A stretch of DNA of 64,000 bases from Cystobasidiomycetes sp. EMM_F5 (Eukaryota): positions 496,001 through 560,000 of the forward strand of contig JBPGPT010000008.1 of assembly GCA_051047955.1 (NCBI GenBank), read 5' to 3'. Of this stretch, positions 4,246-61,600 are shown in pieces (positions within the stretch are counted from its first letter, which is position 1; each line of letters starts with the position of its first letter). A program made the translations under genes and the position numbers. The notes below the pieces were generated by a model, which saw only the letters and a program-made list of their open reading frames with translations, was not told the origin of the DNA and searched no databases.

Positions 4246-7200
4246 ATGACTGTCCACGCCGTCGTCTCTGCTGCGACGGCGGGTCCACCAGCTTCGACGG
4301 CCTGTCTACGCGCAATTGAGGACAGTCGAGTCGCCTGGCTGGCTGATCTGAAGACTCTGCTGAGAGAAGCGAGAAGGCGGTTCGCAGATGTGTCGTGGGC
4401 TGTCGCAAGTACTAGCAACCAGGCTGGCGAGGTTGTATACGGGCACCGCGGTGTGTGATGATTGAGCTTTAATTCGGCTAGTATCACTGACAGGCCATCA
4501 CAGCAATCCTGTACGCTCGAGCTAATGCCGCCTTTCAAGCGAGATTCCTCAACCCAAACGGCAATGCAAGACTGCAGGCAATCATGTCGGGCTCAAACAT
4601 CGAATTGCCCTCGTCGCCACCGAGTCCATCAGCAGACTCGCCCGGACTGACGCCAATTCAGCTCCACAATACCGAGCAGGCCTTGTTTAGTGCCCTCTTG
4701 GAGCTCCTCTACACTGCGACCAGCGAGTCGGGCGAATTGTTTGCCTTTCTGTCCGAGGAGCAGATGTTTACACAGGCTCATAAAGCGGGGACAGAGGGGT
4801 TGGCGCAGGTGAGCTACACATGAAAACCAGATTGCCATATCATACCTGATCCAGGTCAATCTACAGGACCTGCTGTTTGCATGGCGTTCAAAGCTCTTTG
4901 CGGATGTTCAGATTCACCTCCAAGACACCACCGCCCTGATTCCCGACGAAGACGGCCCCTCACATTCCGACATACCGGAAGCATCACAAGAATGCGTGTT
5001 CTCTGCACATCGGTCCATTCTGAGCGTGCGCTGTCCATATTTTGCCTCCTTGCTGTTGTCCCCGTATGCAGACAGCGAAGCTACTTCCTTTACACTGCCA
5101 TCCCCGCCATTCACCGCGGTGTCCCTACACTACATTCTCACCTATATCTACACTGGTACGCTGTCGCTGAATACTCGTTTGATGGATCTGTCCATCGCTA
5201 TGGACGTGTGGAGAGGCGCCCAGTATCTTGGCATGGACATTCTGCTCAACGATGTCGAAGCTCGCATGTCCGACATGTGCCATAGCTACAAAGGCTGTGA
5301 CAGAGCCTGTCGACGTCGGTCAGCTCGCGTATTCGCGTTTGCCCTTGCATCAGACGTCAATTCTACCAAGCTACAAGCTCTCAGTCGACCCGTCGTCATC
5401 AACCATTTTGGCGACGCATGGGACGAAGAAATTGGACAACTCTCATACGATCAACAAAAGTCTCTGCTTACAGATCTGTGTACACGTACTACTGCCGAGA
5501 CGGCGACAAGCGCTTTTACTGGCATATGCCGATTGCGATCCCGACTCGCCAACGAGCGTCAACCGTGGGCAGATCATATTCGAGCAATGCTGCTTCCACT
5601 CCAGGACCGAGTGACGTATATTATTCGAACGAATCTCTCAGAACTCGTGATATCGCCTGCTTTCGTGGCACTCATTGACGGTGTAGGGTTCGCTTACGAC
5701 GTATTGGAGAAGTTGCTGGAGCTCGTGGTGGTCAGTTTGACGGAGAGTACTGCTCCAGCTACGTACGAGGTATTGGTAGGCAAAGTGCTTCTAAGAGAAG
5801 ATGGTCTGCATGTCGACGCTAGAGCCAGAGTCGAGGATGCGCGCAAGGCTATTATCGAGTACCTCAGGAAGCGATGGATCAATGCTCGATCAGCAAATGC
5901 ATTCAACGCGCTCGAAAATTGGTGTCTAAAGGAACTTAGTGACGGTCAGTCTGGTACCGCATACCAATTCTAATAGCCTGATGTTTCGTCATTGTCTTCT
6001 GCAGAATTAGAACAGCCTGTTGACGACCTCTTACTGGCCCAAGCCGCTCCGCCCGTAGCAAAGTCGAGATCCTCAGCTGGGAAGCCGCGATTGTCATCGA
6101 CCAAATTCCACAAGCTCGACCAAGGCGATTATTCATTTGCGACCGGACCGCCTTCCCTCCACGCAACCGTCGTCAACCGCACCGCTGCGCGCAAATCGGT
6201 CGGTTCAAACCTGACTGTGCGGTCATCAGCGTCCGCCAACGGTGGTGTCAAGGCTGGGTCTACAGCAAATATCAGTGAGCAACCGCAGCTAGCACCTGCC
6301 GCCCGCGTTCGGAAGCTTCCGACTGCTACATCAGCAGTGATCCCGGTACCAAATGCTGCAATGTCACCTCTGACTCCCCCACAAACACCACCGCCGCTGC
6401 CTGCTGCAGACACTTCTTCCGCATCTGAGGTCGACAGCGAAGCCGTGCATCAACCTACTCTGGCTCAAGAGACCAATGCGCAGAAGGCGCCACCCGTGAT
6501 TTTGGGGAGAGCTTCGGCGTCAGACTCCAGGCCAAAATCAGCAACATCAGTGAGGTCGACTAGGTCGCCTGCAAATAGAGTGGTGGCTGGCACCACTTCG
6601 CCCAACAGGGTTGTGAAGGACGCCGATTCGGTACGTCCGAGCAGCTCGCATTCCACACGCTCCACAACAACACAGCACAGGATCGCTACTAGAACGTACG
6701 AGCCTCCTTTGCCACCTCAATCTGCTGTACGAAGCGTAGCTACGTCTGTTGGTGGTAACCACAAATTTGCGGCAGCGTCAACAAATTCCATACGAAGTAC
6801 GTCTGGGACGTCATCGACCCCAACCGGTCGGACTTTGCCAGCCAAGCCAAGCCCTCGCAATGAAATAACGAGCGTAGCTTCCACGCCCTCATCGACGGCA
6901 GCTACATCTGTACGCCAGCGCACGGTCTCTGCTTCATCGACTGCGACAGTCAAGAGTACTCAGAGGCCTACGGGAATGTCTTCTCCAAAAGCTCTCTCTG
7001 CAAAGTCAATTCGGTCGACAGCAGGAAACGGCAAGACGACTTCAACTTCGCCATCTACGCCGCTGAAAGCGCGACCGAAGGCCGTCGTGGCGGAAGGGGT
7101 TGCGCAGGGAAAAGGCGCCTCGGCTTCGGCACAGCCTGTCAACATCGAGCGGCGAGAGCAAGGTAAAGCTAAAGCTGTTCGGGAAGCGCCAGGAACGACC

Positions 7201-7679
7201 TTAAAAGTTGGCATTCCTTGCGTCATCACTATTGGTGCTTCGAAGCTGCGTGGAACGGTCCGCTACCTAGGAGAGACCTTTTTCGATGCCGGCGTTTTTG
7301 TTGGCGTCGAGGCAGTTGCGGAGGAGACTGATCCTTCTCAAGACATGCATTGGAATGACGGTACAGTTGATGACGTCAGAGTGAGGTTTGCTCGCACTTT
7401 GAAGTCGGCGTTTTTTGATTTCCCTTCTGCACCAGTATTTCCAGCTCGAATCGTCTCTAAACAGTAGTCCTGCCGCGAAAAGCTTGACAGTTCCGCAAGG
7501 CAAGCGTGCAAGGCCTTCTCTCATAAGTAATGGACGGAGCACGCCAGTCGGGAACGCGACAGTAATAACCAAGGGCATCTTCGTCCGACCGAATCAAGGT
7601 GAGCATAGGCTCACGCGTAATGTTTCGCATAGCTACCTGCAACTGAGTACTTGCTATCCCAGTCCTGTACGTGTTCTAA
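4246..7679 (+). CDS. BTB/POZ-domain protein with S/T/P-rich linker and C-terminal CAP-Gly domain
   Basis: BTB signature FSAHRSILSVRCPYFASLL...LHYILTYIYTGTL; CAP-Gly RGTVRYLGETFFDAGVFVGVE...WNDGTVDDVR...GIFVRPNQ; several introns. Confidence 0.8.
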
Positions 7680-8722: not shown

Positions 8723-9355
8723 ATGTTCAAATCCGCTGCTCTCGCTCTCGCTCTGCTGGCTTCGGCCGTCTCCGGCCAAAACAGCTCGAATACTACCTCT
8801 GGCAATGCCACCATCCTCTTTACAAACCCCATCAGCGGGACCCAGTGGACCTTCAGTCAGAACCAGACTATTCAATGGACGATGCCAACTGCGTCGGACC
8901 CAAAGAACATCTCATTATACGTAGCAAACACCAGGAATATCTCTCTGCTGTAAGCAGTTTGCGGTCTTGCGCGATATCAGACAGCTGAACGACTTGTTTC
9001 GCGATGAAAAGGCCAATGTATCAAACTGCACTTGCGCTCAATATTCCATCTGCTCGTCAAAACTTCTCGTTGGCCAACGTCTCGCTCCCAATTGGCGACA
9101 GCTACGTTATTCTCATGACTTCAATCACAAACGCATCCCTCATCTACGCTCAAGGCGGTCTCTTCAACGTGACCAACTCGACCTCTAGACCTGGATCTAC
9201 GGGCAGCGGATTCGCCCTCCCTAATGCGACAACCTCTGGAAATGCCGTGAGTCGCTGTGCTCGAATATGTTTGATGAACAACGACTGAGTGGGCACTCTC
9301 CTGATTGCAGACGGCACCCATCGTACGCCGTGCCATCCAGAGACTGACCAACTAA
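8723..9355 (+). CDS. Secreted Ser/Thr-rich glycoprotein with Kre9/KNH-like N-terminal Ig-like domain
   Basis: Signal peptide MFKSAALALALLASAVSG; FTNPISGTQW...TIQWT...YVILMTS...IYAQGGLFNV pattern; many N-x-S/T sites; two introns. Confidence 0.7.
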
Positions 9356-9641: not shown

Positions 9642-12600
9642 ATGGACAGCGACGCGCCGTTCAAGTCGCCCAGACCGCCAGCTCCCAGGCGGTCTCGCAG
9701 CAGGTCGCGGCTGGCGGCCACAACAACAACAACAACAACAACAGCTAACCCATACGGTCACGACCAGGCAGCGCTGACGACGAGGTCATTGCTGGAGAGA
9801 CTGGAAGGGCTGCTCGTTGCAAAGAGTAACGAGATCCAGCTGGCAGGCAGACTGGGCGAGGCACTGCTCAATCAACAGGCAGACCTCGAAGCGAGGATAC
9901 GCGATTTGCAGGACGAGGTGCACCACCAGCAGGCTACCAATGGCCGTGCGAATGAAGTCTTTGGCAACGGCGGACGGGACAGCGACGACGAAAGTGTCGT
10001 TGGCATCGAGGTCCGCCAAAGGCTCCAAGCGCTCGAAGCTGAACTCGAGCGATGGAAGGAGGGCAACGATGAGCTATTCAAGGGCGTCGCGTCAGATAGA
10101 CAGAATCTCGACTCGTCTACGTCGGTCAGCGCGGTGAGGATATTTACGTTTGACGACGAAATACGGTGACCTATGCTGAAATTATTACATCGCATAGGCA
10201 AGGAATAACGGTGCAGCCCCGCCGCCTCTACCCTCCACAACATCCTACAAAGCCAGCCTCGATGGTCTAGGAATCTCTGGGCAAGTCGCGCCTAATATAC
10301 CAATGTCAGCAACCGAAGGGGAGAATGGCACAACATCTCCCAGCATGTCTAGGCGACAGCGTAATGCGCAACACCGAGCAATGGACGTCGAATTTGCAGC
10401 AGAGATAGGACAAGGTTTGCTCGTAGAAGTCCGGCGGTTGCAAGCACTACTATCGGAACGAGACGCGACAATTGCTGCCGGCAAAGCGGAGCGTGATGGC
10501 ATGGAGAGGTCGATGGAACAGCTAGCGACATCGCTCAAGACCGTTGAAGAGAATCTCGACAAATTTCGCGAAGAAAATTGGAATCTGGAAATGTCGCAGC
10601 AGGAAATGCAAACGCGCATCTCTGACATGTCTGCCAGCTTGCTGAAGACGGAGAATGAGCGAGCTCGTCTGGCAAAGGAGCTCGCTGCGTCTCGCGAGAT
10701 TCTAGATACGCACAAGGTGGACAACGAACGCTTGCAAGGTCAATTGACAGATTTCAAATCAAAGCACGAAACAGACATGGCTAGCATGCGTCGCACTAAT
10801 GCTGGCCTGCAGCGCGAAAAGACGGATCTGCAAGCTGCTGTCGAGACTGCGACCAAAGAACTGAACCTACGAGCGAGAGGAGTTCGCCGTAGCGTGTCTG
10901 CTGCTTCCGGTGTAAACATACCTGGTGCGATCGACGAGTATGGCAATCCTCTGGGCGAGATGCAAGAATCAGATGAGGAGGATGTCTTTGCTGGACCTCG
11001 TGCTATCCAAGGACGATTGAACGACGACCTCTTCGACGCGGATGGTAACATGCTGTCTGATGCCGGCACGCCTGACGGATCCCCAGCACTACAGCGACGA
11101 GGCCTTGCTAACATACGCGATCAGACCGAAGTGGAGAAGTTGCGGACAACGTTGGCGAATTCCCACAAGACTATACAGACTTTGCGATCTGCGCTGCTCA
11201 GAGAAAAGGAGGCTCGCCTAGCAACAAAGCGCAAAGCTGTCGGAGAGGCTGCGACTAGCGACGACGAGATCCACGACGATGCCGAGGACGACGATGATAG
11301 TCTTCCAGAACAGTTCGAGAACGATGAGAATGATACGCAAATTAGGAGGCAAGGTTTGTCACGTCGCAGCCGTGGCGGGAGAGGAGCTCGAGCGCTGGTG
11401 CCCGTCAGAAGGCTACAGGCTCCGGTCGGGCGCATGCCGCGTGGACCACAGCCTTCGCGATTGTCATCGGAGGTCGAGGTCAACGTAAGCCAATACCAGG
11501 ATGATATCCAGCCAAGCAGCGATGGCGAATCCATACATAACGTGTCCATCATTGATCACGGCGCTCCAGAAGCCTCCATGGCGCTCAGTGAAATGGAAGA
11601 GCTGGCTTCTTTCGAAGACCACGCATCTGCCCAAGGCGACCGCGACATGCTGCGATCCTCCGTTGCATCGTACAACAGTATTTCTGCAATGGACCCCGCT
11701 TTTTCGCAGATACTGCCTCGATCGCATTCGACAGCCTCTACGGCCCGTCAAACATCATTGGGCTCCTTGATGAAAGACCCGCGGCCCACGTCTGCAATGT
11801 TTGCGACCGATTTCAACTTGGCAGATGCTTTAGCGGAGCACACCTCTCGCACTGCGACCAAGAAAGCCATAGACCTGGCTGTTCAGACGGACGCTATCGT
11901 TCAAGATCCTCCTGTCATTCCAGATCCTGTCGTCATCTATCGTGATGTTGAAGTTCACGCTGCTAAACCCTCAATGCAGGAAATTTCACTCCAGACGGAC
12001 GATATCCCGCCGGAGATAATTGAGCCAGTCGTCATCTATCAAGAAGTACGGGTAGAGGTCCCGGCTCCGAGACCGAAGGTTGTTGATCTTGGTGTTCAGA
12101 CGGACAAAGTTGAGCCGGAACGCTTGCCTGCTCCTGAGCCTGTCGTCATCTACAAAGAAGTGCAAGTGCCGGCTCCGAAGGCAGCCACCCAAGATGTCGG
12201 TTTAGAAACAGATGCGATTGTGCCGAAAGTGGTGCCGATTCCAGAACCTGTCATCATCTATCGGGATGTGGAAGTCCTGGTTCAACCCCCTCAACCGGAG
12301 AGGAGAAGTGCCAATACGCAAACCGACGAAGTCGTCGTGCCCAGAGCACCGTCCCCACCTCCACCAACTATTGTATATCGCGACATCGTTGTCGAAGCAC
12401 CAAAGCCTTCTCAACAGGACTCGGTCGTTCAAACCGATGAGATTGTCATTCCACCGCCTCCCACCCCGGAGCCGGTCATCATTTACCGAGATGTGGAAGT
12501 CCTGGTACATCCTCCCAAACCGGATACTAAAGACTCTCAATTCCAGACGGATGAGCTTGTCATGCCGTCTCCGCCTCCTCCCACGATCATATATCGCGAT

Positions 12601-15600
12601 GTGATCGTGCACGCAGTTAAACCACCTACCTCAGAATTCTCAATTCAGACCGATCCGCTTGTACTACCAGCGGCGCCGGCGCCGGAGCCTGTGGTGATCT
12701 ATCGCGATGTGATACCTCCCAAACCTATCGTGCAGGATTCGACGACGATGACAGACGCAATCATTGCGACAAGCTCGGCTGACGCATCTCATAAGAATGC
12801 GCTAGAGCCAGATCGTCCCGATATGCACCACGATGCTGATGTTGGCGCAGATGACGAGACCACTATCTTCCACTCCGGGCTGGTTTCCGACAGTCAGGAC
12901 GGAACACATACTCCCCAGCTCGGCTCTACCCCTAAGTCAAAATCGCGAGCATTACCAAGCTTTGACACTTTCAACCTGCTGCACGAGCAGCCTATCCCGC
13001 GCAGCGAGTCGGCCGCGCAATCCTTCAAGTCTTTCTCGGTGCACAATACTGGCTATGACACTGCAACAGAGACGGAAGGCGACTTTGAAGATGCTCAAGA
13101 GATGCTGACACCTATGGAGAATGGCACTCAGCTTGGACACTTCTCCAACACTTCTAGAGAGACCATGAGAACAGCTAGGGGCCTCGATAGCGATGACGAC
13201 AGTGATCATTACAGAGCCCTCGCGACTCCCCGATATACAGCAATAAGAAACAGAAGCTCGCGACAGGTCGTTGCCGAGCCTGTAACATTGCCGAAAGCTA
13301 TGAAGGAGATTGGCACCAGTTCCGTCAGAGAAATTGTGGAGCTGTCGAAACACGAACCACTACTCCCAGAGAAGCCTTCGGTGTCCGATGTCGGTATACA
13401 GACAGACCCCTTGGTCGATCTCCCACGAACAATGGTCACTTCTCCTACAATGCAGTTTGGCCAAGGTTCTACTGCCACGCCTATAGCTTCTGCTGTGCCT
13501 GGAGGACTTGTTTACTTACACAAGGTCGGGACGCAGCCTGCAGAGATGCCTGTGTCATCGGGTCTCAGCAGAAGTGTTTCCGCCAAATCAAGTATCAGCA
13601 ATGTTTCGGCTGTTACAGCGGATACGCATGCAACCGCTTCGACTCGCAAGGTCCGTGCACCAAAGCTCTCCATACCGCCACCACCGTCCATGCCTCCTCC
13701 TTCTGACATTATCAAGCAACATACCACGCCATCCTTCAAGCCACCCAGACCTAGTTCACCACCACCGCCTGAGCTGTTGGCCAGAGCTCAGCAGACTCCG
13801 AGCTTTCTGTCGACCGCGCGGAACGGACGACGGACATCTTCTGCCGGTGCAAGCGATACCATGTCGAGCACATCTACGCCAATACACGGCAATATGCTGG
13901 GAAGCAGAGATGAGCACTTCTATGGCGCGTCTCCTGCGCCTCTTCCGGCTGCCCGGACATCTGGCGTCCCTCGGGCGGTCGCTTCGGCGGCACAATTGCG
14001 AGATGCGCCGCCTCTACGCACACAGGGCGCTTCGACCGGATCCGAAGGTATGACTAGTCATTCTATCGAGCCGATGAGACGTGCGGGAGCAATCACGCCA
14101 GTCAACACGGCAGCCAGACCACCTTCTCGTGGCGCCTCTACCTCCACTAGACGGCGGCATGACCGTATGCATCCTGCAAGGGCGTCCATGTCCTCACTAG
14201 GCAGCAGCGCTTCATCCATAAGCGGCATACAAGCTACAAACTTTGGAGAGGCAACTAATCATTCAGGTGACAGCGGAGGCCTAAGTGGGCTTGCTGGCAC
14301 GCCCGATCCCATCATCCAAAGCATCACACAGACTATGATTGGAGCGTATTTCTTCAAATACACTCGCACCACATTCCGCAGAGAGACTTCGCAGAATAGG
14401 CACAAACGCTTCTTTTGGGTCCATCCTTACACCAAGACGCTCTATTGGTCCGACAAGGATCACGGAGCACCCGACGTCAATCAGTCGAGTGCGAAAAGTT
14501 GTGGGTGCCCTTGTTATCGAGGGCATATCCCGAGACTGACGTGTGCAACGCTCAGTATTTATCGCTGGCGTGCGTGAAGAAGTCGACACGAACACTCAGC
14601 CCCCTGGTTTGGTTGGCGTAAGCATTGTCGTGTACAACGAAGGCCGTGAGGTGAAATTCACGGCTCCGACGTACGAGCGGCACGATACCTGGATGAATGT
14701 TAGTCCGAGGGGTCTCATTGCTGATTTGCGCCATGACGCTGATGTCACGGTTGTTGTCTAGGCGATAAGCTACCTCCTGAATCGGCCGGAAGGTACTGGT
14801 ATTGTACCCGCGACGCCTGCACGATCGACTCGTGTCATGCCCGACACGCCTGGCAGTACGCGGTCGTTCAGTCTGATCAAGTCTATCAATCGTTCGGCTT
14901 CGTCACTGAGGTTTAGAAAGCAAAGCGACCCTCTTACCTTGTCTGATGCAACACGGGAGGCGACACTTGTACCGAATCGAGCTGGACATGCCCGACCGGG
15001 CGGTACGGTCGGCCGGACTGGCAAGAATCGAGCTTCAGTTATGAGCATGATGGATGCGGATGTGGACGAGCACGGTCAGCGCCATCGCAGTCAGATTGCT
15101 AGACCTGCTACGAGCCTCGGAACTTATACCTACTCTACGCCAAGTAACGTCAATGCGCATAATGGGACGCCCGCGAGTGGTAGTGCAAGAGACGTTGAGG
15201 ACGAGTCCTCAAGAGTGACCCCAAAGCCGTCTGATCACAAGACTGCCTCGAAGTCTGCGAGAAAGATGTCGATTGTCGGGATGATGGGCGGAGGGCATCG
15301 AGAGACGTCGACGGGACACGACATCAGTGGTCCAGCACCGAAACGACCGGCTACGCCCGCTGCAGAGTATCAGGAACTGGCGGCACAGTATGGATCGCCG
15401 AGGAGTATTCGAAGCTACAAGCGACCTTCTACGGCCATGTCACTCACTGCTCCTGCTCCAAACGTCATTGCCGACGAGAGTATCGAGTTTATCGACCGTC
15501 GCGATGTACTTGGGGTGGATGAGCACGGTCAAGGGTATGAAGGATTGGAGAATGTCCGAGCGTGCTGTAACGGCGCTCACGATGTCGGCTCGCTCAGTGT

Positions 15601-16018
15601 CGGGCAGAGCAAGCGCCATCACCATCATCACCCTCCAGCCTCGGCGAGCGGTACTGCAAGTGCTGCCTCTATTGCCAGTCGTACTTCGAGCCGGCGCAGC
15701 AATCCGACTGGAACGATTAGCAGTATTGCAAGTGCGAATCGCATGTTTGGGTACAATCCGCACAAGGAGGCGAGTGTGGGTGGTACGACTACGACTACGA
15801 GCAAGCGGCAGCGGGAGAGGACGAGCAGTAGCGGAGTGCATGCACCGGGTGATGCTGTCCCGCCTCTCCCCGCTGGAGCGTTGCATCTGGCAGGGACGTT
15901 TGAAGAGCCAGGGAGTCCTAGCCTTCGAGCGAGGGGACTCACGTCTACGCTGAGGAGTGCGAGCAGTAATGCCAACCTTGCCGGCGGGCACTCTCGATCT
16001 CGGAAGGGTGCTCGGTGA
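9642..16018 (+). CDS. NUM1: Num1/ApsA/Mcp5-like cortical dynein anchor (nuclear migration protein)
   Basis: N-terminal coiled coils (DVEFAAEIGQGLLVEVRRLQALL, ENWNLE); central repeats; Mcp5-type PH domain TQTMIGAYFFKYTR...RHKRFFWVHPYTKTLYWS...FTAPTYERHDTW; late LENVRACCNGAHDV motif. Confidence 0.88.
9720..9743 (+). repeat. (ACA)n microsatellite encoding poly-Thr
   Basis: acaacaacaacaacaacaacaaca in Num1 exon 1. Confidence 0.85.
11872..12756 (+). repeat. About 9 degenerate ~35-38 aa coding repeats (QTD...PEPVVIYRDVEV...PKP)
   Basis: Visible directly in the translation of ORF 10303..14577. Confidence 0.9.
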
Positions 16019-16713: not shown

Positions 16714-19700
16714 ATGGCATCGCCGTTCGACTTTTCATCCTTCCTGCTCACTCCTCCCATTCCCGGCGCACTCAACGATGGCCAGACGGGACAGGGCAGT
16801 GGAGGTGCGGGAACCAGAGTCACCACTACGACCTCGTCTCAGCAGCCTCAGCAGCCTCAGCAGCCTCAGAACGATGGCAGTAGCATGGGGCAGTATCTGA
16901 GTGCATCGTATGAGTCGAACAATGGCTCCAGGCAAGCTCCTCAACAGCAGCAGAGTGCAGCAGACGGGAGGAATCAGCAATATCAGCCGAGTCAACAGTA
17001 TCAACCGACAAACCAACAGCAACATCAGCAGCAATTGTATGGGCAGCAGCAACAGCAGGACCGATATCCGCAGTATGCCAACCAGCAGCTTGCCAACGAT
17101 GGCTCAAACGATCGATTCGCTTATACTTCGCAGGATGCCAATCTGAATACAGTCAACAACAATGGCTATGGTGCAAATCTCAATTATGCGGTTCCGAACC
17201 AGCCCAGCAGTGCCATGCAAGCTGGCGGAGGAGAACAATACAACCAAGTCAACAATCAACAGCACAATCAGCAACAGCAGAATCAGCATCTTTCAGAGCC
17301 GAACTATCAGCAGTCTGCGCAGCAACACATATCGCAGAGCTCGAATCAAAGTAGCTCCGCCGCTTCGTCCTCTGCAGCGTCCAAGCTACAAAGCTTTGAT
17401 GATCGCGATTTTGGTCTAGATCCATCGGCCTTTTCGAATGTAGCGTTTCAGATGCCCTCCTTCCTTTCGGCAACGATTGATCCGTCCCAGTTTGGCATCC
17501 AAGGCGTTACTATGGTTGATCCGCAAGCGTGAGTCAGTCTCGTTTGCTGTGCGAGCCGTCTGGACTGATAGTCATTGCCCTACCGACAGATTTCACAATC
17601 CTCAGCAGTCAAATGTCTACCAGCCGTACTCGTACGGGCAAGCAAGTATGCCGTCGTCTGGACAATCCAACCAGTATACGGGGAGCGTTAGCAGCATGCC
17701 GACCATTGACACGGGTGCCCTCTATGGTAACACCGGGATGCATAATCAAGCTCAATCACAGCAGCAGCAGCAATCAAATCAGAGTTATTATCAGAACACT
17801 GGTAATCAGCGCAAGTTGCAACAAGCAAGCGGCGCTGTTGCGAAGGCTTCGTCGAATACCTACCGGCCAGATACCAGCAATCCAGTCTACGGCATCTACG
17901 GTTCTTCAGTCATTAGCATCAACCCTGATAGTTCGCCATTCAAGCTACAACTCAACAGTGCACAACCGCCGTATGATCCGAATCAGCAGGAAGCCCGTGG
18001 CGATTCTCCAGATTTCGATCCAAAGTCACTAGGACTGCCAATAGGCAACAAGCTGTTTCCTCAGCCTCTTCCTGGCCTCTACTCGACCTCCGGCTTCGAT
18101 ATGCTCGGCGTTCTAGCCAGAGTCGTGGCACGCCCTAACCCGCAGATCAATATTGGACCGGTAGATACGAGTTGCTCCTTCCTTGTCGTTGATGCACGAC
18201 GCTACGATATGCCAATTGTCTTTGCCTCGACGACTTTTTCGGAATTGACGGGCTACAACAATGCAGAGATTATCGGCCGCAACTGCCGTTTCTTGCAAGC
18301 TCCGGATGGACATGTTGCGCTGGGATCGAGAAGGCGGTATACGGACGGAAATGCAGTGTACCATCTCAAGACGCACATTTCGTCTGGCAAAGAGTCACAA
18401 GCGAGCATCATCAACTATCGCAAGGATGGCTCACCATTCATCAACCTCGTGACTGTCATTCCCATCACATGGGATACAGACGAGATTGCCTACTTTGTTG
18501 GCTTTCAAGTCGACCTCGTAGAGCAACCAAATGCAATCCTAGAAAAGATGAGAAACGGTACTTATGTCGTAAATTACTCTCTCCTGCCCACCACTCAGGG
18601 ATCGAGCCTCAACTCTATACTTCCGATTCCGACAGAACCACCAGAAGAGACGCTGCCCGCCGATGACACGGCTTGGTCTGAACAGAAGGCTGTAAAGATC
18701 GTGAACCCGGTAGCATCTAGTGCGGCTACCGTGGCTGCTGCTCAGAGCAGCATGCCCATTGCACCTGAATTACTCGAAGTCATGGGACTCGTTGACGGCG
18801 GTGACGAGTTAGACGATGACGCAGCCAAGAAGAAGTGGAACAAGATGCTTCTGGACAACACTGGCGATTTCGTTCACGTGCTATCGCTCAAGGGGTCTTT
18901 CCTGTACGTATCTCCGAGTATTCGAGGGCTATTGGAGTACGAGCCGTCAGATCTCATTGGCAAAACGCTGCAAAGCGTATGCCACCCTTCAGACATTGTG
19001 CCAGTCATGCGAGAGTTGAAGGAGGCCTCTACAGTCACCCATCCAATCATCAACCTTCTCTACCGCTTTCGACGCAAAAGATCGGGCTACGTGTGGCTCG
19101 AAGCTCAGGGTAAACTCTACCTGGAGCAATCCAAATCACGCAAATGCGTCATTCTAGTCGGGCGAGAAAGGCCAGTCTATAAGATCTCATGGCAGGATTT
19201 GAAAGAGGCAGGTGGACTAGGCGAGAAGGAATTCTGGAGTAAGATATCTCCCGATGGCATGTTTTTGTACTGTACGCCCACCGTCAAGACGGTCCTTGGT
19301 CACGATGCCGACGACCTTCGTGGGAGGAGCATGTTTGAGCTGGTCGAGCAGGACAAGACGGCCGAGCTTACCAAAGCATTACAAGATGCGACTGCTGGTA
19401 GATCAGTTCGTCTGCAACACAAATTGCGCAGCTTTGCCGGCAACCATCTCGACGTTATTACGAGTTTCTTCCCCAATTCCGCTCCGAAGGACTCTGCAAG
19501 TCAGAGGACGGCTGGCACGGTGTACCCTTCGGTTATCGCCCAGACAAACGAACTTTCGTCTGAGATGCGCCGCCGACAAAGCACGGTGCATCCGTCATCA
19601 CTGCCCAAGCCATATGGTGTATCTACAACAGACGATGGGCGAACTGCTTTGAATATAGCAGCAGCTTCAAGCGCAGCTATCCGCGATATGATAGTAACAA

Positions 19701-20329
19701 CTGAAGCCAGCGATGATAGCGACTCTGCCAAGGATGGCGCAACATCAAGCGGTCCAAGCGGATCAGATGTTTCTGCTCCATCCACATTCTCTGCTATTCC
19801 TTCGACGTACAAGACGCTCGTTATGCAAGGCAATACAGCATCAGACAATATCTTTGACGAGCTCGATACTATCCGCAGCACAAGCTGGCAATACGAGCTA
19901 CACCAGCTCAAGCTTACCAACAAGAAATTAAAGGAAGAATTACACATGCTTCAAGCTGCTAAGCGCAAACGAAAGAAGAAGACAATTATCGAGCATATCG
20001 GCGCTGGTAGTGGCAGTACTAGCGCGCCAGCCAGTCCGCCTGCAAGTAATGCGAAAGCGTGCGCAAACTGCGGGCGAACAGATTCTCCGGAATGGAGAGT
20101 CGGCCCAACCGGTCAGCGAAATCTCTGTAACGCCTGCGGTCTGCGCTGGGCAAAGGCTACGAGAGTACATCGGCAAAATAGTGCGACTCCGTCGACGACG
20201 CCAAGCTCCGGCTCCGGTGGCTCCGACATGGATACTGCCGCAAGTTATCTTCAGGCTATCCCAGTTGCCGGTCCGTTCGGACTACGTCCTCCTCTCAAAC
20301 ATGCAGAATCTTCGCAATTCAATCCCTGA
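16714..20329 (+). CDS. wc-1: White Collar-1 blue-light photoreceptor/transcription factor
   Basis: Q-rich N-terminus; [14 protein letters not shown] cap; LOV motif GRNCRFLQ; two further PAS domains; basic KRKRKKK; GATA finger CANC-x18-CNAC. Intron 17529-17589. Confidence 0.95.
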
Positions 20330-58696: not shown

Positions 58697-61600
58697 CTAG
58701 GTGAGAAGGGCACTGTAGGTGTTCGTGTCCATCTGACCCTTATTGTATCTGATCCAGCCGGATCCTAGGCCAGCTCGAGACGTCTTGACGATTGCATGTA
58801 TAGGCTCGTTGATACCTCCCGAACGACCGATCTGCATACCTTGCGTCCATCCCATCTTTGCAAGCATCTGATGTCCGATATTGTCGGCAGCAATGCGGTC
58901 GGCCCCTTCGCCAACAACGGCACCTTCATGGTTGCGAGAGACAGGCCCTCCGCCACCACCACCTGAACGAGAGGTCCGCGAGAAGGCGACCGATTTGCTG
59001 CCGCCGCCGTTGGACCAGGAAGAAGTGATGGCCAGGTATTGATTGACCTTACGGCCGTCAGCTCTAGAGACGCTGGTTGTCTGGGTCCGGTATAACACGT
59101 TATGACGATCACGGCCGGTACCGCGTGATTTGCTCTTGAGACTGACACGCACCGTCAGTCACGAGCGCGGGCGGTTGTCACCGTGAACCTACTTGTACGC
59201 TCCTGCCAACATATGGACAGCCATACGGAATTTCTTATCCATCGGCGGAAGCTGATATTCGGCAAAGCCCGACTCATTGATCCATTTCTTCAGCTCTTCA
59301 TTGAGGCGATGAAAGTCTGGTGCTACTGCAGAAGCAGTCTTGAGACTCGCTTCCTCGTCGCTCACATCGCCACTTCGGAAACCCTTACGTTTGGCGCTCG
59401 CCCGTTTCGCTTTCTTTGCATTTGCTCGCGACGGCTTTTGCTCAAGGCGCTTCAACGCGCGCTCTTGTCGACGTGCTGCCTTCTTTTCGCGGTCTCGTCG
59501 CCATTGAGCCTGGAGTTGCTCGCCAAATATGTCATCCTTGAAATCCGGGGCTTGTCTTGCACGACGAGCTGGTTTCGACATGAGGAGCTCTTCCAGATCG
59601 GCTTCCTCGTCAGCTTCATCCTCCAGCCCTTCTTCCTCACTATCACTATCGTCTATGAGATTTGAGTCCTCAAGCTGGTCATCCTCCTCATCTCCCACAA
59701 CGATCATGACCTTCTCCTGCTTCGAGGAGGATATGACGTCGGCCACCTCGCTGGAATCCGTATCCTCATCGTCATTTACTTTACCACTCGGGTCATGCTG
59801 TTGATCATCATCGCCTTCGCTTGCGACGTCGTCTCCGCTGTGAAAGGCCTCGAGGAAACGCTTTCCGGCTTCGATAAGATCGGCTTCATTCATATCTTCA
59901 ATGTCGCTGCGGAAAATTGCATTACGCTCGTCTTCTTCGTCAGACTTCCAACTGGCAACGGCCGGCACAAATACGGGGAAGCGCTCCCGTCTGCCGTTTT
60001 CCTCCGTTTTCGCTTCGCGTAGAATCAGCCGTTCTTCGTAAGCCTCTTCATTCCCGATATCAGAATCCGAATCGTCAGTCGACTGATCTGACGTGATGTC
60101 GTCCTCGTCGTCTTGCCGCCTAGACGCTGCTAAATCTTGCAAGTCATTAATGCTCAGATGCTCGCCCGCCGACACCGCATTCGCAAATGAGCGAAGCCTG
60201 GCTAGGTCGTCCACGTCGATCTTCTTCGCTTTCGATGGCGCACCGCTTGCTTCGTCATCGGATGTGCTGGATGCGTTCTGTGCAGCAATATTGGCCAAGT
60301 AGTCCTCTACGGCCAAGTCGATGGCAGTTTTCTTCTTTCCCCTTGCCATCTTACCATTCGGTACTTTGCTTGATGACACTGACGATTCTGCAACGCCACT
60401 CGCAGCTATCCTCGAAATAACATTGGACACCTCGCTATCGCCTTCTTCGTCGTTATCTGCATTCGCTGGCGGTCCATCGCTTCCCCACTCAATGTCAGAG
60501 TCGTCGACACGAGCTTGCTTTCTTTCCTTATTCGAGGGTTGTGAGACTCCATTTCGTTTCGCACGCTTACGATTTCTTTTCGCTTCGCGCTTCAATTGCA
60601 ACTGAGCATTCTTGGACAATTTTTTCGATTTCTGGACATCGGTCTCGGCAATTGCTACAGCTCTAGGCGGAGATGTCGGTGCAAAGATCGGGGCAGCTGG
60701 ACTGAGCGTCTGTTGATATGGGCGGAAAATAGTGGTAATGTCAACATCGTCGTCAATCACTCGAGCGTAGTTTGTGACGGGCAGGTGATCCGGCGGCTTG
60801 TCTGTGTTTGCAGATTTGCCCTTGCCTTTATCCAAAGTGGTACCTAAACCGCTCTGTTGAGACTTGATGGGCGAAGGGACATCTCGTATCGGGCGGCGGG
60901 GAAACAAGTCTTCTGTCCCAGACTCCGCGTCAACATCGTCATTGTCGAGCATGGCTCTGTCGTCTGAGTCCGCCAATCTTGTGTTCGCCTTTGCGCCATT
61001 CACATCGACCACAAACAGACCCTTCTCCTCCTTCTTAGCAACTTCTGATATCTTTTTCGCAGATGTCGAGGGGATTGCGCTGGCAAGTGTGTTCAAAAAG
61101 CCGGTAGCTGCGAGGAAAGAAGGCTTGTCGAACGGTTTGGCAGCGGCTGAGAGTGCTCGAGATCCGCTTGATGCAGATTGATTGGAAGAGGTCTGGCTCA
61201 TTGGTGCACTGGAAACAGGTCCATTTGTCCCGGACGTTGTAGCTTCTTGCGGTGGCGGCATGACGATAGATTCGGCCATCGCGGGAGTCAACAAGCGTGG
61301 GGCCAGACTAGCCGAAGCGAAGAGCTCCTTCAGGCGCTGCTGAGCTCCTGCACATATTCACTTCGTCAGCTGCATTCACCTATAATTATGACGCAATATA
61401 ACACACTTTGCTGCTCGAGCTCGTCTGCCTGCATTGTACTGCTCAGTCCGCCAGAGGAGGCTTTGACGAAAGCGACGGGCTTGATGAGATTGGGGTCATG
61501 GCCGATATACTCGGGCCTGCGTGTGATTGGAGATTGTCCGCTGATGTTGCTGGAAGGATACGATTGCGGCGTTCCCAAGCGAGCAGCTCCCAATCCAGCA

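Follow-up and report, generated by a model that had tools for sequence, protein, structure and literature searches.

The cortical dynein anchor predicted from the DNA studied here carries, between its coiled coil and its PH domain, a regular array of motifs resembling the binding sites of the dynein light chain LC8. The gene lies in a 64,000-nucleotide stretch of Cystobasidiomycetes sp. EMM_F5 (GenBank assembly GCA_051047955.1, contig JBPGPT010000008.1, positions 496,001 to 560,000 of the forward strand), hereafter the window, and is assigned to the Num1/ApsA/Mcp5 family. Members of this family hold a PH domain on the plasma membrane and an N-terminal coiled coil for dynein–dynactin and mitochondria. 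Judged from sequence, LC8-type motifs in the linker from coiled coil to PH domain are a trait of the family, and the window protein passes the tests that sequence allows for a multivalent LC8 client. LC8 binding by its linker is predicted, and we hold it to be very probable; at a probability of roughly 0.65, we favor the further reading that LC8 dimers would hold two Num1 chains together, in parallel, as a hinged, dimeric spacer.

The spliced gene model is open through to the terminal stop and its product aligns from the N-terminus to the tail with full-length fungal homologues; exon ends were predicted from the DNA and the homologue alignment, with the third intron set at GT..AG ends. The initial annotation had called the gene a Num1-like anchor, and this label is sound, because the protein has an Mcp5-type PH domain (PF12814, Mcp5_PH; 69.5 bits on exon 2 alone against a cut-off of 25) and shares its coiled coil with homologues that include one, from Neolecta, annotated as ApsA. 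An N-terminal coiled coil together with PF12814 is common to homologues across Dikarya and Mucoromycota, which come from Basidiomycota, Mucorales, Glomeromycota and Ascomycota; this comparison of coiled coils was made without S. cerevisiae Num1 itself. A genome search with Mcp5_PH gave two exon matches, both at the window gene, the sole PF12814 locus found. In a tree of the coiled coil and PH domain, the gene stands beside P0002–P0004, within a clade that also holds Phenoliferia and Sporobolomyces (approximate likelihood ratio test support (aLRT) 88, Pucciniomycotina-like), and the basidiomycete clade as a whole has an aLRT of 85.5. From this family membership we infer that the coiled-coil block is the counterpart of the dynein- and mitochondria-binding CC/PA domain, and that the protein has a Num1-type function in EMM_F5, with a cortical site, dynein anchoring and mitochondria tethering.

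The array sits within an open frame of 1,459 codons (10198–14577), in which all ten cores quoted by the initial annotation are present and in place. The spacing of about 36 residues that it had described, with a Pro-rich hinge and a V/I-rich strand, is also found: the first nine sites lie 36, 35, 36, 38, 37, 38, 34 and 34 residues apart (mean 36.0). Each repeat opens with an 8-residue QT site and closes with a short Pro/Lys spacer; between them lie a Pro-rich hinge and then a V/I strand in which one Tyr is invariant. Hinge and strand, the latter of the form [VT][VI][IV]Y[RQK][DE][VI], follow each of the first eight sites, so that each of the eight strands is placed between a hinge and the next LC8-type site. 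The linkers between array sites are about 28 residues long and the region that holds the sites contains 18% Pro, whereas the tenth site lies 217 residues beyond the ninth, past an FFAT-like motif. The anchor residues are Q-T in 8 of the ten sites, E-T in one (QDVGLETD) and M-T in another (QDSTTMTD).

Sites were scored as 8-mers spanning positions −5 to +2, with a strict and a loose rule built from the positional preferences reported in PMC6607443 and from the 62 measured binders in DataSheet1 of PMC12057147. The strict rule is passed by 7 of the 10 sites (0.05 in shuffles) and the loose rule by 8, and the sites are close to measured binders (table below); the claim that the cores are of LC8 type therefore stands for most of the array, but sites 4 and 7 fail both rules. 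Site 4 is probably weak or non-binding, because in addition to this failure no measured binder has an E anchor and E is only 3.7-fold enriched at this position in homologues, compared with 29-fold for Q. Site 7 is probably weak. Within the window, residues 555–860 of P0001 hold 6 strict sites against a shuffle mean of 0.013 and a maximum of 2 (5,000 shuffles, none reaching 6), and no strict motif occurs in the 33,371 residues of the other open frames. The strict rule was composed after the window motifs had been seen, and for this reason the tests on unfiltered QT[D/E] sites of homologues, given below, are the fairer control. The DNA copies of the repeats have diverged to 60–89% identity, Tandem Repeats Finder detects no repeat at the array DNA, and of 118 pairs with the same residue at an anchor position, 69 differ in codon, so that the anchor residues have outlasted silent change. 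The array thus reads as an old expansion in which these residues were retained.

The motifs extend far beyond the window protein. In all, 170 proteins were collected, 111 of which have both coiled coil and PH domain; the other 59, mostly fragments, were excluded, and the counts for homologues refer to the 110 proteins left after removal of the query, a set without S. cerevisiae Num1, S. pombe Mcp5 and A. nidulans ApsA. Their linkers contain 216 strict sites against 8.9 in shuffles, compared with 2 in the N-terminus and coiled coil (3.3 expected) and 1 in the PH domain and tail (1.2 expected). At least one strict site is found in 95 of the 110, at least two in 60 and at least three in 30, so the conservation of the QT positions, which the initial annotation had named as a check, is borne out far more widely than it had supposed. 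As the search behind this set used a query containing the repeats, the count was repeated on homologues from a search with the coiled coil only (28 proteins, 25 of them full-domain): the 25 contain 54 strict sites against 1.9 expected, and 22 of them have a site. By clade, as read off the tree with three proteins ungrouped, at least one strict site is present in 62 of 63 basidiomycetes (query included), 6 of 6 Glomeromycota-like, 18 of 27 Mucorales-like and 7 of 12 ascomycete-like proteins, none of the latter having more than two. An LC8-type motif lies downstream of the FFAT-like site in 49 of the 53 homologues that have one, mostly 59–129 residues on. One or two LC8-type sites are probably ancestral to the family, the array being a lineage-specific expansion.

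The surroundings of the motifs agree with LC8 binding in detail. With the flanks held fixed, the anchor position in homologues is enriched for Q 29-fold, M 16-fold, N 7-fold and E 3.7-fold, with all other residues at 2.3-fold or less; the anchors of the 62 measured binders are Q, M, N and S, none having E, and N is enriched in homologues although it is outside our rule. Among 288 unfiltered QT[D/E] sites, a proline occurs within −5 to −1 in 6 (36% expected), D or E stands at −4 in 202, and a charged residue occupies −1 in 9 (26% expected). The proline-poor stretch runs from −6 to +2, proline reaching 17–27% at −9, −8, +3 and +5, and it would correspond to about the 8-residue LC8 footprint. When one QT[D/E] site is taken per protein, 95 of 98 are proline-free and 81 of 98 have D or E at −4. 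Only 6 of 322 site spacings in homologues are shorter than 12 residues, with peaks at 12, 15 and 18; a floor of 12 fits an 8-residue site plus the 3–5-residue linkers described for KANK1 and Nup159 (PMC12803091). A profile of eight repeats searched against 177,635 Protein Data Bank (PDB) sequences gave as its sole match at E ≤ 10 the SAO-1 peptide of entry 7y8w (E 0.53, weak), an LC8 co-crystal whose entry also contains DLC-1; the SAO-1:DLC-1 crystal is described as a 2:4 complex (PMC9630320). Two other residue preferences were seen at QT[D/E] sites: Cys at −1 is 63-fold enriched, at the first site (EFGCQTD type) of Agaricomycetes, and Trp at +4 is 61-fold enriched, at the distal site (QTDEW).

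The genome itself encodes the predicted partner. An LC8 gene (L002:1385-2030; G000:C112, about 59570-60215) has the binding stretch W-H-C-I-V-G-x-S-F-G-S-Y-V-T-H intact, and a dynein heavy chain gene is present. Exon-wise searches, whose misses are no proof of absence, returned no candidates for Tctex-1 (PF03645) or the dynein intermediate chain (PF11540) in this genome. The LC8 gene, the only one found, reads EKDRAQCIKKEMD where others have EKDIAAxIKKEFD, and its second intron is unusually long (about 215 bases).

Structure prediction gave no self-contained folded domain, the outcome that had been named as counting against an LC8 array. AlphaFold2 on the array alone yielded no fold (mean predicted local distance difference test score (pLDDT) 34), and on a double repeat with a 5-row alignment the predicted template modeling score (pTM) was 0.17 with no secondary structure assigned, both being weak tests with shallow alignments. 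The repeat region has no match in Pfam or in the PDB (single sequence) and no usable one in the ESM Atlas. Together with the Pro content, these results indicate that the sites lie in a disordered region. A predicted complex of four copies of P0174, a related fungal LC8, with two copies of sites 2–3 scored 0.45, 0.05 and 0.02 in separate runs, the median falling below the 0.34 mark; with no controls and with peptides outside the calibration, the verdict was ‘no answer’, and it is counted neither way.

What fills the linker differs among orthologues. Runs of at least four sites are found in 24 of 169 proteins, in separate clades and with different unit lengths; the window protein is outside this tally because sites 4 and 7 interrupt its run. 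Units of 12–18 residues build the Mucorales runs (Mycotypha, 14 sites; Hesseltinella, 11; Gongronella, 10), units of 12–25 residues those of Polyporales, 15-residue units those of the close relatives P0003, P0031 and P0032, and 32–36-residue units that of P0002. Near-perfect ladders of 15 or 18 residues, with runs of up to 14 sites, are seen in P0031, P0032, P0003, P0079, P0099, P0073 and P0023. A rigid rod is plausible for such arrays of 12–18-residue units in relatives, which suit it better than the window array does. Other orthologues retain one to three sites: in Kockovaella, Kwoniella, P0014 and P0036, strings of V/I/K/E fill the slot, and in P0004 about 700 residues (approximately 500–1205), a coiled coil by eye, stand at the array's place between two LC8-type sites. 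Across 63 basidiomycete proteins, the count of VIKEV strings falls as the count of motifs rises (rho −0.39, p 0.0015, uncorrected for phylogeny).

The V/I/K/E strings connect the family to epiplastins. Pure runs of this kind match the Pfam family IMCp, above cut-off in Cryptococcus depauperatus (P0010) and below it in Kwoniella (P0017). The window repeats contain 26% V+I, 7% A+G and 11 acid–base dyads in 306 residues, interrupted by QT sites and polyproline, and show no VPV unit and no Pfam IMCp match. By composition, the window V/I strand would be an epiplastin-like unit, and the repeat may be read as a hybrid of such a strand with an LC8-type site. Single-copy ‘epiplastin-like’ genes of Basidiomycota, annotated ‘tubulin binding protein’, were reported in PMC6212826 and left unexplained in the part of that paper available to us. 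The Cryptococcus protein in its supplement file 2, read by eye, has the Num1 coiled coil seen in the window gene and its Tremellomycete homologues and is nearly the same as P0017; the homologues P0010, P0016 and P0017 carry Mcp5_PH. Because the Cryptococcus sequence has the Num1 coiled coil, the ‘epiplastin-like tubulin binding’ genes of Basidiomycota are, on sequence grounds, Num1/ApsA orthologues with V/I/K/E-string linkers.

These observations suggest the following mechanism. The window protein would be the cortical anchor of EMM_F5, with its PH domain at the plasma membrane and its coiled coil toward dynein–dynactin and mitochondria, and its disordered linker would be a multivalent LC8 client. 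LC8 is dimeric, and its pair of grooves usually receives two copies of one client (PMC6607443, PMC3145545). Each QT or MT 8-mer would add a β-strand to an LC8 groove, and therefore each LC8 dimer would clamp two Num1 chains in parallel. With some 7–8 good sites this would produce a string of LC8 beads, carrying dimerization beyond the coiled coil and keeping the chain partly extended. The string would set the reach between the membrane, a contact with the endoplasmic reticulum (ER) at the FFAT-like site, and the dynein- and mitochondria-binding end; by rough estimate, the region thus extended would span about 10–15 nm if coiled and no more than about 100 nm if stretched. The array would have expanded in a slot filled elsewhere by 12–18-residue LC8 ladders, epiplastin-like repeats or coiled coil. 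The initial annotation had proposed an LC8 ladder as spacer or dimerizer. The dimeric spacer is the part we favor, as a duplex hinged rather than rigid unless the V/I strands of two chains pair under LC8; a rigid rod of the Nup159 type is unlikely for the window protein because of its linkers of about 28 residues, its two poor sites and the dispensability of the linker in yeast.

Several points weigh against this reading. Peptides that carry the anchor residues often fail to bind LC8: only 7 of 19 predicted by a position-specific scoring matrix bound in isothermal titration calorimetry, as given in PMC6607443. The LC8 of this genome departs from the norm at two positions that are usually conserved (EKDRAQ for EKDIAA, and M for F), and sites 4 and 7 of its supposed client break the LC8 rules. 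Linkers of 30–41 residues in ASCIZ lead to heterogeneous and less cooperative LC8 complexes (PMC10046861). LC8 needs parallel chains and the window coiled coil sits upstream of the array, while the coiled coil of yeast Num1 dimerizes alone and has been modeled as BAR-like, a fold of antiparallel dimers (PMC3308694). The same source describes the S. cerevisiae linker as dispensable, coiled coil plus PH domain or coiled coil plus CAAX box being sufficient for dynein anchoring and mitochondrial attachment. Within the family, the number of sites ranges from 0 to 16, with mostly 1–3 per homologue, three or more strict ones in only 30 of 110 and none in 15 of 110 (among them Kockovaella and Blastobotrys), and these counts are uncorrected for relatedness or tandem duplication.

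That low site number is also the starting point of an alternative in which LC8 does bind, but just one or two position-conserved sites matter, as a local dimerization clamp, the array being a tandem expansion that is tolerated but does nothing to set length. The unit length varies freely, from 12 to 36 residues, two window sites have decayed, and the yeast repeats are dispensable (PMC12033498, PMC3308694). Such an account leaves aside that runs of at least four sites arose in separate clades with differing unit lengths, that anchor residues were kept despite codon divergence, and that linkers rich in motifs tend not to be rich in VIKEV strings, as if the slot needed filling (the correlation, n = 63, being uncorrected for phylogeny); we consider it improbable. 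Alternatively, the repeats could form a self-assembling, β-rich element of a membrane skeleton, of the epiplastin or alveolin kind, the QTD being a part of the repeat and LC8 unneeded. The V/I strand is indeed the best-kept portion of the repeat, and the Tremellomycete orthologues with pure VIKEV runs, named epiplastin-like in PMC6212826, match IMCp. Most QT arrays of homologues, though, lack the strand altogether (VIKEV count 0 in P0003, P0008, P0079 and P0099), the motif flanks obey LC8 rules in detail, and a compact or self-paired fold was not predicted, which makes this account very improbable.

A slightly smaller chance still is given to the idea that the sites directly recruit or activate dynein, either with LC8 as a bridge between Num1 and the dynein intermediate chain or by strand and QT together mimicking the adjacent Tctex1 and LC8 sites of that chain. 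Num1 is a dynein anchor, and a V/I strand lies about 20 residues ahead of each QT. In metazoan intermediate chains, a similar distance (about 20 residues) separates the Tctex site from the LC8 site. Against this, LC8 grooves normally hold two copies of one client rather than cargo and motor (PMC6607443, PMC3145545), dynein binding in yeast maps to the coiled-coil domain (PMC3308694), and the strand is missing in most orthologues. Least probable of all is that another partner reads the motifs, for instance FHA domains, which bind phosphothreonine (T-x-x-I/L/V), or that they are low-complexity drift. I, L or V does stand three residues past the threonine in 10 of 10 window sites. The FHA reading was rejected nonetheless, because the same holds for only 30% of the 288 homologue sites (background 17%) and because the invariant Q and the constraints from −1 to −5 would be left unexplained; the shuffles, together with the comparison between regions of the protein, rule out drift.

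Beyond the hinged spacer, we consider a broader reading, tentative and on balance doubtful: LC8 would be a subunit of the fungal cortical anchor that is ancestral but has been overlooked, and the Num1 linker a ruler that lineages rebuilt time and again from three exchangeable parts, LC8 ladders, epiplastin-like β-strings and coiled coil. The window hybrid would then be an LC8-templated filament in which V/I strands are zipped between registered chains, its length fixing how far dynein, mitochondria and ER lie from the membrane. If true, this would be a convergent parallel to KANK1 and would imply a parallel Num1 dimer, like those of the dynein activating adaptors.

Features of the predicted Num1/ApsA/Mcp5-family gene in the window (window coordinates; 8-mers and affinities given for comparison are those of measured binders in PMC12057147, DataSheet1)
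Feature	Positions	Strand	Remarks
Predicted Num1/ApsA/Mcp5-family gene	9645..16018	+	4 exons: 9645-10133, 10198-14500, 14556-14698, 14762-16018; 2,063 aa
Conserved coiled-coil block	10348..10872	+	Alone recovers 28 homologues (basidiomycetes, Glomeromycota, ascomycetes), 25/28 with PF12814
Site 1 IDLAVQTD	11869..11892	+	Strict; first after conserved MDPxF block; cf. Chica IDAATQTE, 0.4 µM
Site 2 QEISLQTD	11977..12000	+	Strict; cf. Nup159 VDNGLQTE, 13 µM
Site 3 VDLGVQTD	12082..12105	+	Strict; cf. Pac11 YDKGIQTD, 0.62 µM
Site 4 QDVGLETD	12190..12213	+	E at position 0; fails strict and loose rules
Site 5 RSANTQTD	12304..12327	+	Strict; small residue at -3; cf. Chica RSTTTQTD, 5.2 µM
Site 6 QDSVVQTD	12415..12438	+	Loose only, V at -2; cf. 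53BP1 QDATVQTE, 1 µM
Site 7 KDSQFQTD	12529..12552	+	F at buried position -1; fails both rules (PMC6607443)
Site 8 SEFSIQTD	12631..12654	+	Strict; cf. BSN AEFSTQTP, 6.3 µM, and Nup159 CNFSVQTF, 20 µM
Site 9 QDSTTMTD	12733..12756	+	Strict, TMT anchor; cf. MYO5A DDKNTMTD, 8.8 µM
Eight V/I-rich strands (VVIYRDV type)	11929..12711	+	Starts 11929, 12028, 12142, 12250, 12367, 12475, 12583, 12691
FFAT-like motif TATETEGDFEDAQE, candidate VAP/Scs2-binding site	13060..13101	+	Similar core in linker of 53/110 homologues; loose pattern
Possible weak eleventh site KEIGTSS, TS anchor	13303..13323	+	P0002 has TREMGTSP here; cf. PAK1 RDVATSPI, 42 µM
Distal site 10 SDVGIQTD	13384..13407	+	Strict; position-conserved between FFAT-like motif and PH; cf. 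Nup159 AESGIQTD
Mcp5-type PH domain	14311..14701	+	Interrupted by introns 2 and 3; exon 2 matches PF12814 at E 4e-19

The FFAT-like core GDFEDAQE, a match to a loose pattern only, lies downstream of an acidic tract and resembles the yeast Num1 FFAT quoted in PMC12033498; a gene with a VAP/MSP domain is present in the genome. That the motif is kept in about half of the homologues differs from the same review, in which the Num1 FFAT is called ‘not obviously conserved’ among yeasts. In the tail encoded by exon 4 (15560–15585), ENVRACCxGxHxVG followed by a run of His is conserved in basidiomycete and Glomeromycota homologues and is possibly a metal-binding or lipidation site. Two genes upstream of Num1, the gene at 4813–7600 combines a BTB domain with a CAP-Gly-like domain at the C-terminus that narrowly misses the cut-off (E 1.6e-5), and possibly encodes a microtubule-binding protein; its BTB domain is unrelated to the one that the Rickenella homologue P0012 carries as a fusion (best E 0.003 over 26 residues). 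Between the two, a small gene (8723–9350) has a signal-peptide-like start and a Ser/Thr/Asn-rich sequence, its first exon being without a Pfam match. Downstream, the gene at 16714–20329 encodes a Gln-rich N-terminus followed by three PAS domains, of which the first is LOV-like, and a GATA finger, and has the architecture expected of a White Collar-1-type photoreceptor.

Num1/ApsA/Mcp5 is the best-studied cortical dynein anchor and mitochondria–membrane tether, and its central repeats had no assigned function; the family-wide LC8 signature gives this region a testable role. As the initial annotation had supposed, the connection seems new: in the openly licensed literature and bioRxiv we found no report of Num1, ApsA or Mcp5 binding LC8, Dyn2 or NudG, a search that did not extend to interaction databases and proteomics supplements, which could list Dyn2 with Num1. 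Light chain, Dyn2 and LC8 go unmentioned in the text available of a 2025 Num1 review (PMC12033498), and the available portions of PMC2063782 and PMC3145545 make no Num1–LC8 link. The U. maydis ‘Num1’ of PMC3879195 is the splicing factor SPF27, a different protein. If LC8 binds as predicted, LC8 mutants should influence where nuclei and mitochondria are placed by way of the anchor in addition to the motor, complicating the reading of fungal LC8 loss of function. The signature also matters for the question of parallel or antiparallel chains in the Num1 dimer, the homologues offer naturally graded LC8 arrays (1 to 16 sites; spacings of 12, 15, 18, 25 and 36 residues) for relating linker length to cooperativity, and the Num1 identity would explain an orphan gene class of the epiplastin literature.

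The window gene, single copy in the genome search, shares with Num1 of S. cerevisiae, ApsA of A. nidulans and Mcp5 of S. pombe the N-terminal coiled coil, long central repeats, a candidate FFAT-like motif and the C-terminal Mcp5-type PH domain. Yeast Num1 has twelve 64-residue repeats without known function (PMC12033498), whereas the window repeat is 36 residues long and combines an LC8-type site with a Pro hinge and a V/I strand. Like epiplastins (alveolins, articulins; Pfam IMCp), it has V/I-rich strings with acid–base dyads, but here single strands alternate with LC8-type sites, without VPV or an IMCp match. Multivalent LC8 clients are already known in Nup159, Pac11 and ASCIZ. The 8-mers AESGIQTD, VDNGLQTE and CNFSVQTF of the Nup159 DID and YDKGIQTD of Pac11, both clients of yeast Dyn2, are very similar to those of the window, and in these proteins too tandem sites lie in a disordered region adjoining a coiled coil. 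The five close sites of Nup159 form a rigid rod, a geometry better matched by the 12–18-residue arrays of P0003, P0031, P0032, P0079 and P0099; the short linkers of such rods (3–9 residues) are found in homologues with 12–15-residue spacing and not in the window protein. With ASCIZ/ATMIN (PMC10046861), the array has in common a large number of sites that differ in strength, a TMT site among them, along with linkers that are in part long. ASCIZ, however, is a transcription factor that senses the LC8 level and has irregularly spaced sites; those of the window protein are regularly spaced, with a conserved hydrophobic strand in every linker. KANK1 is a close functional counterpart at the cortex. 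Like the window protein, it is a cortical adaptor with a coiled coil, a long disordered linker (L2) and a C-terminal domain (preprint PMC12803091). Its at least 15 weak, non-canonical sites with 3–4-residue linkers form rods, in contrast to the canonical-looking sites and 28-residue linkers of the window protein, and no homology is implied; LC8 multivalency has been proposed there to extend the linker across the gap between membrane and microtubule.

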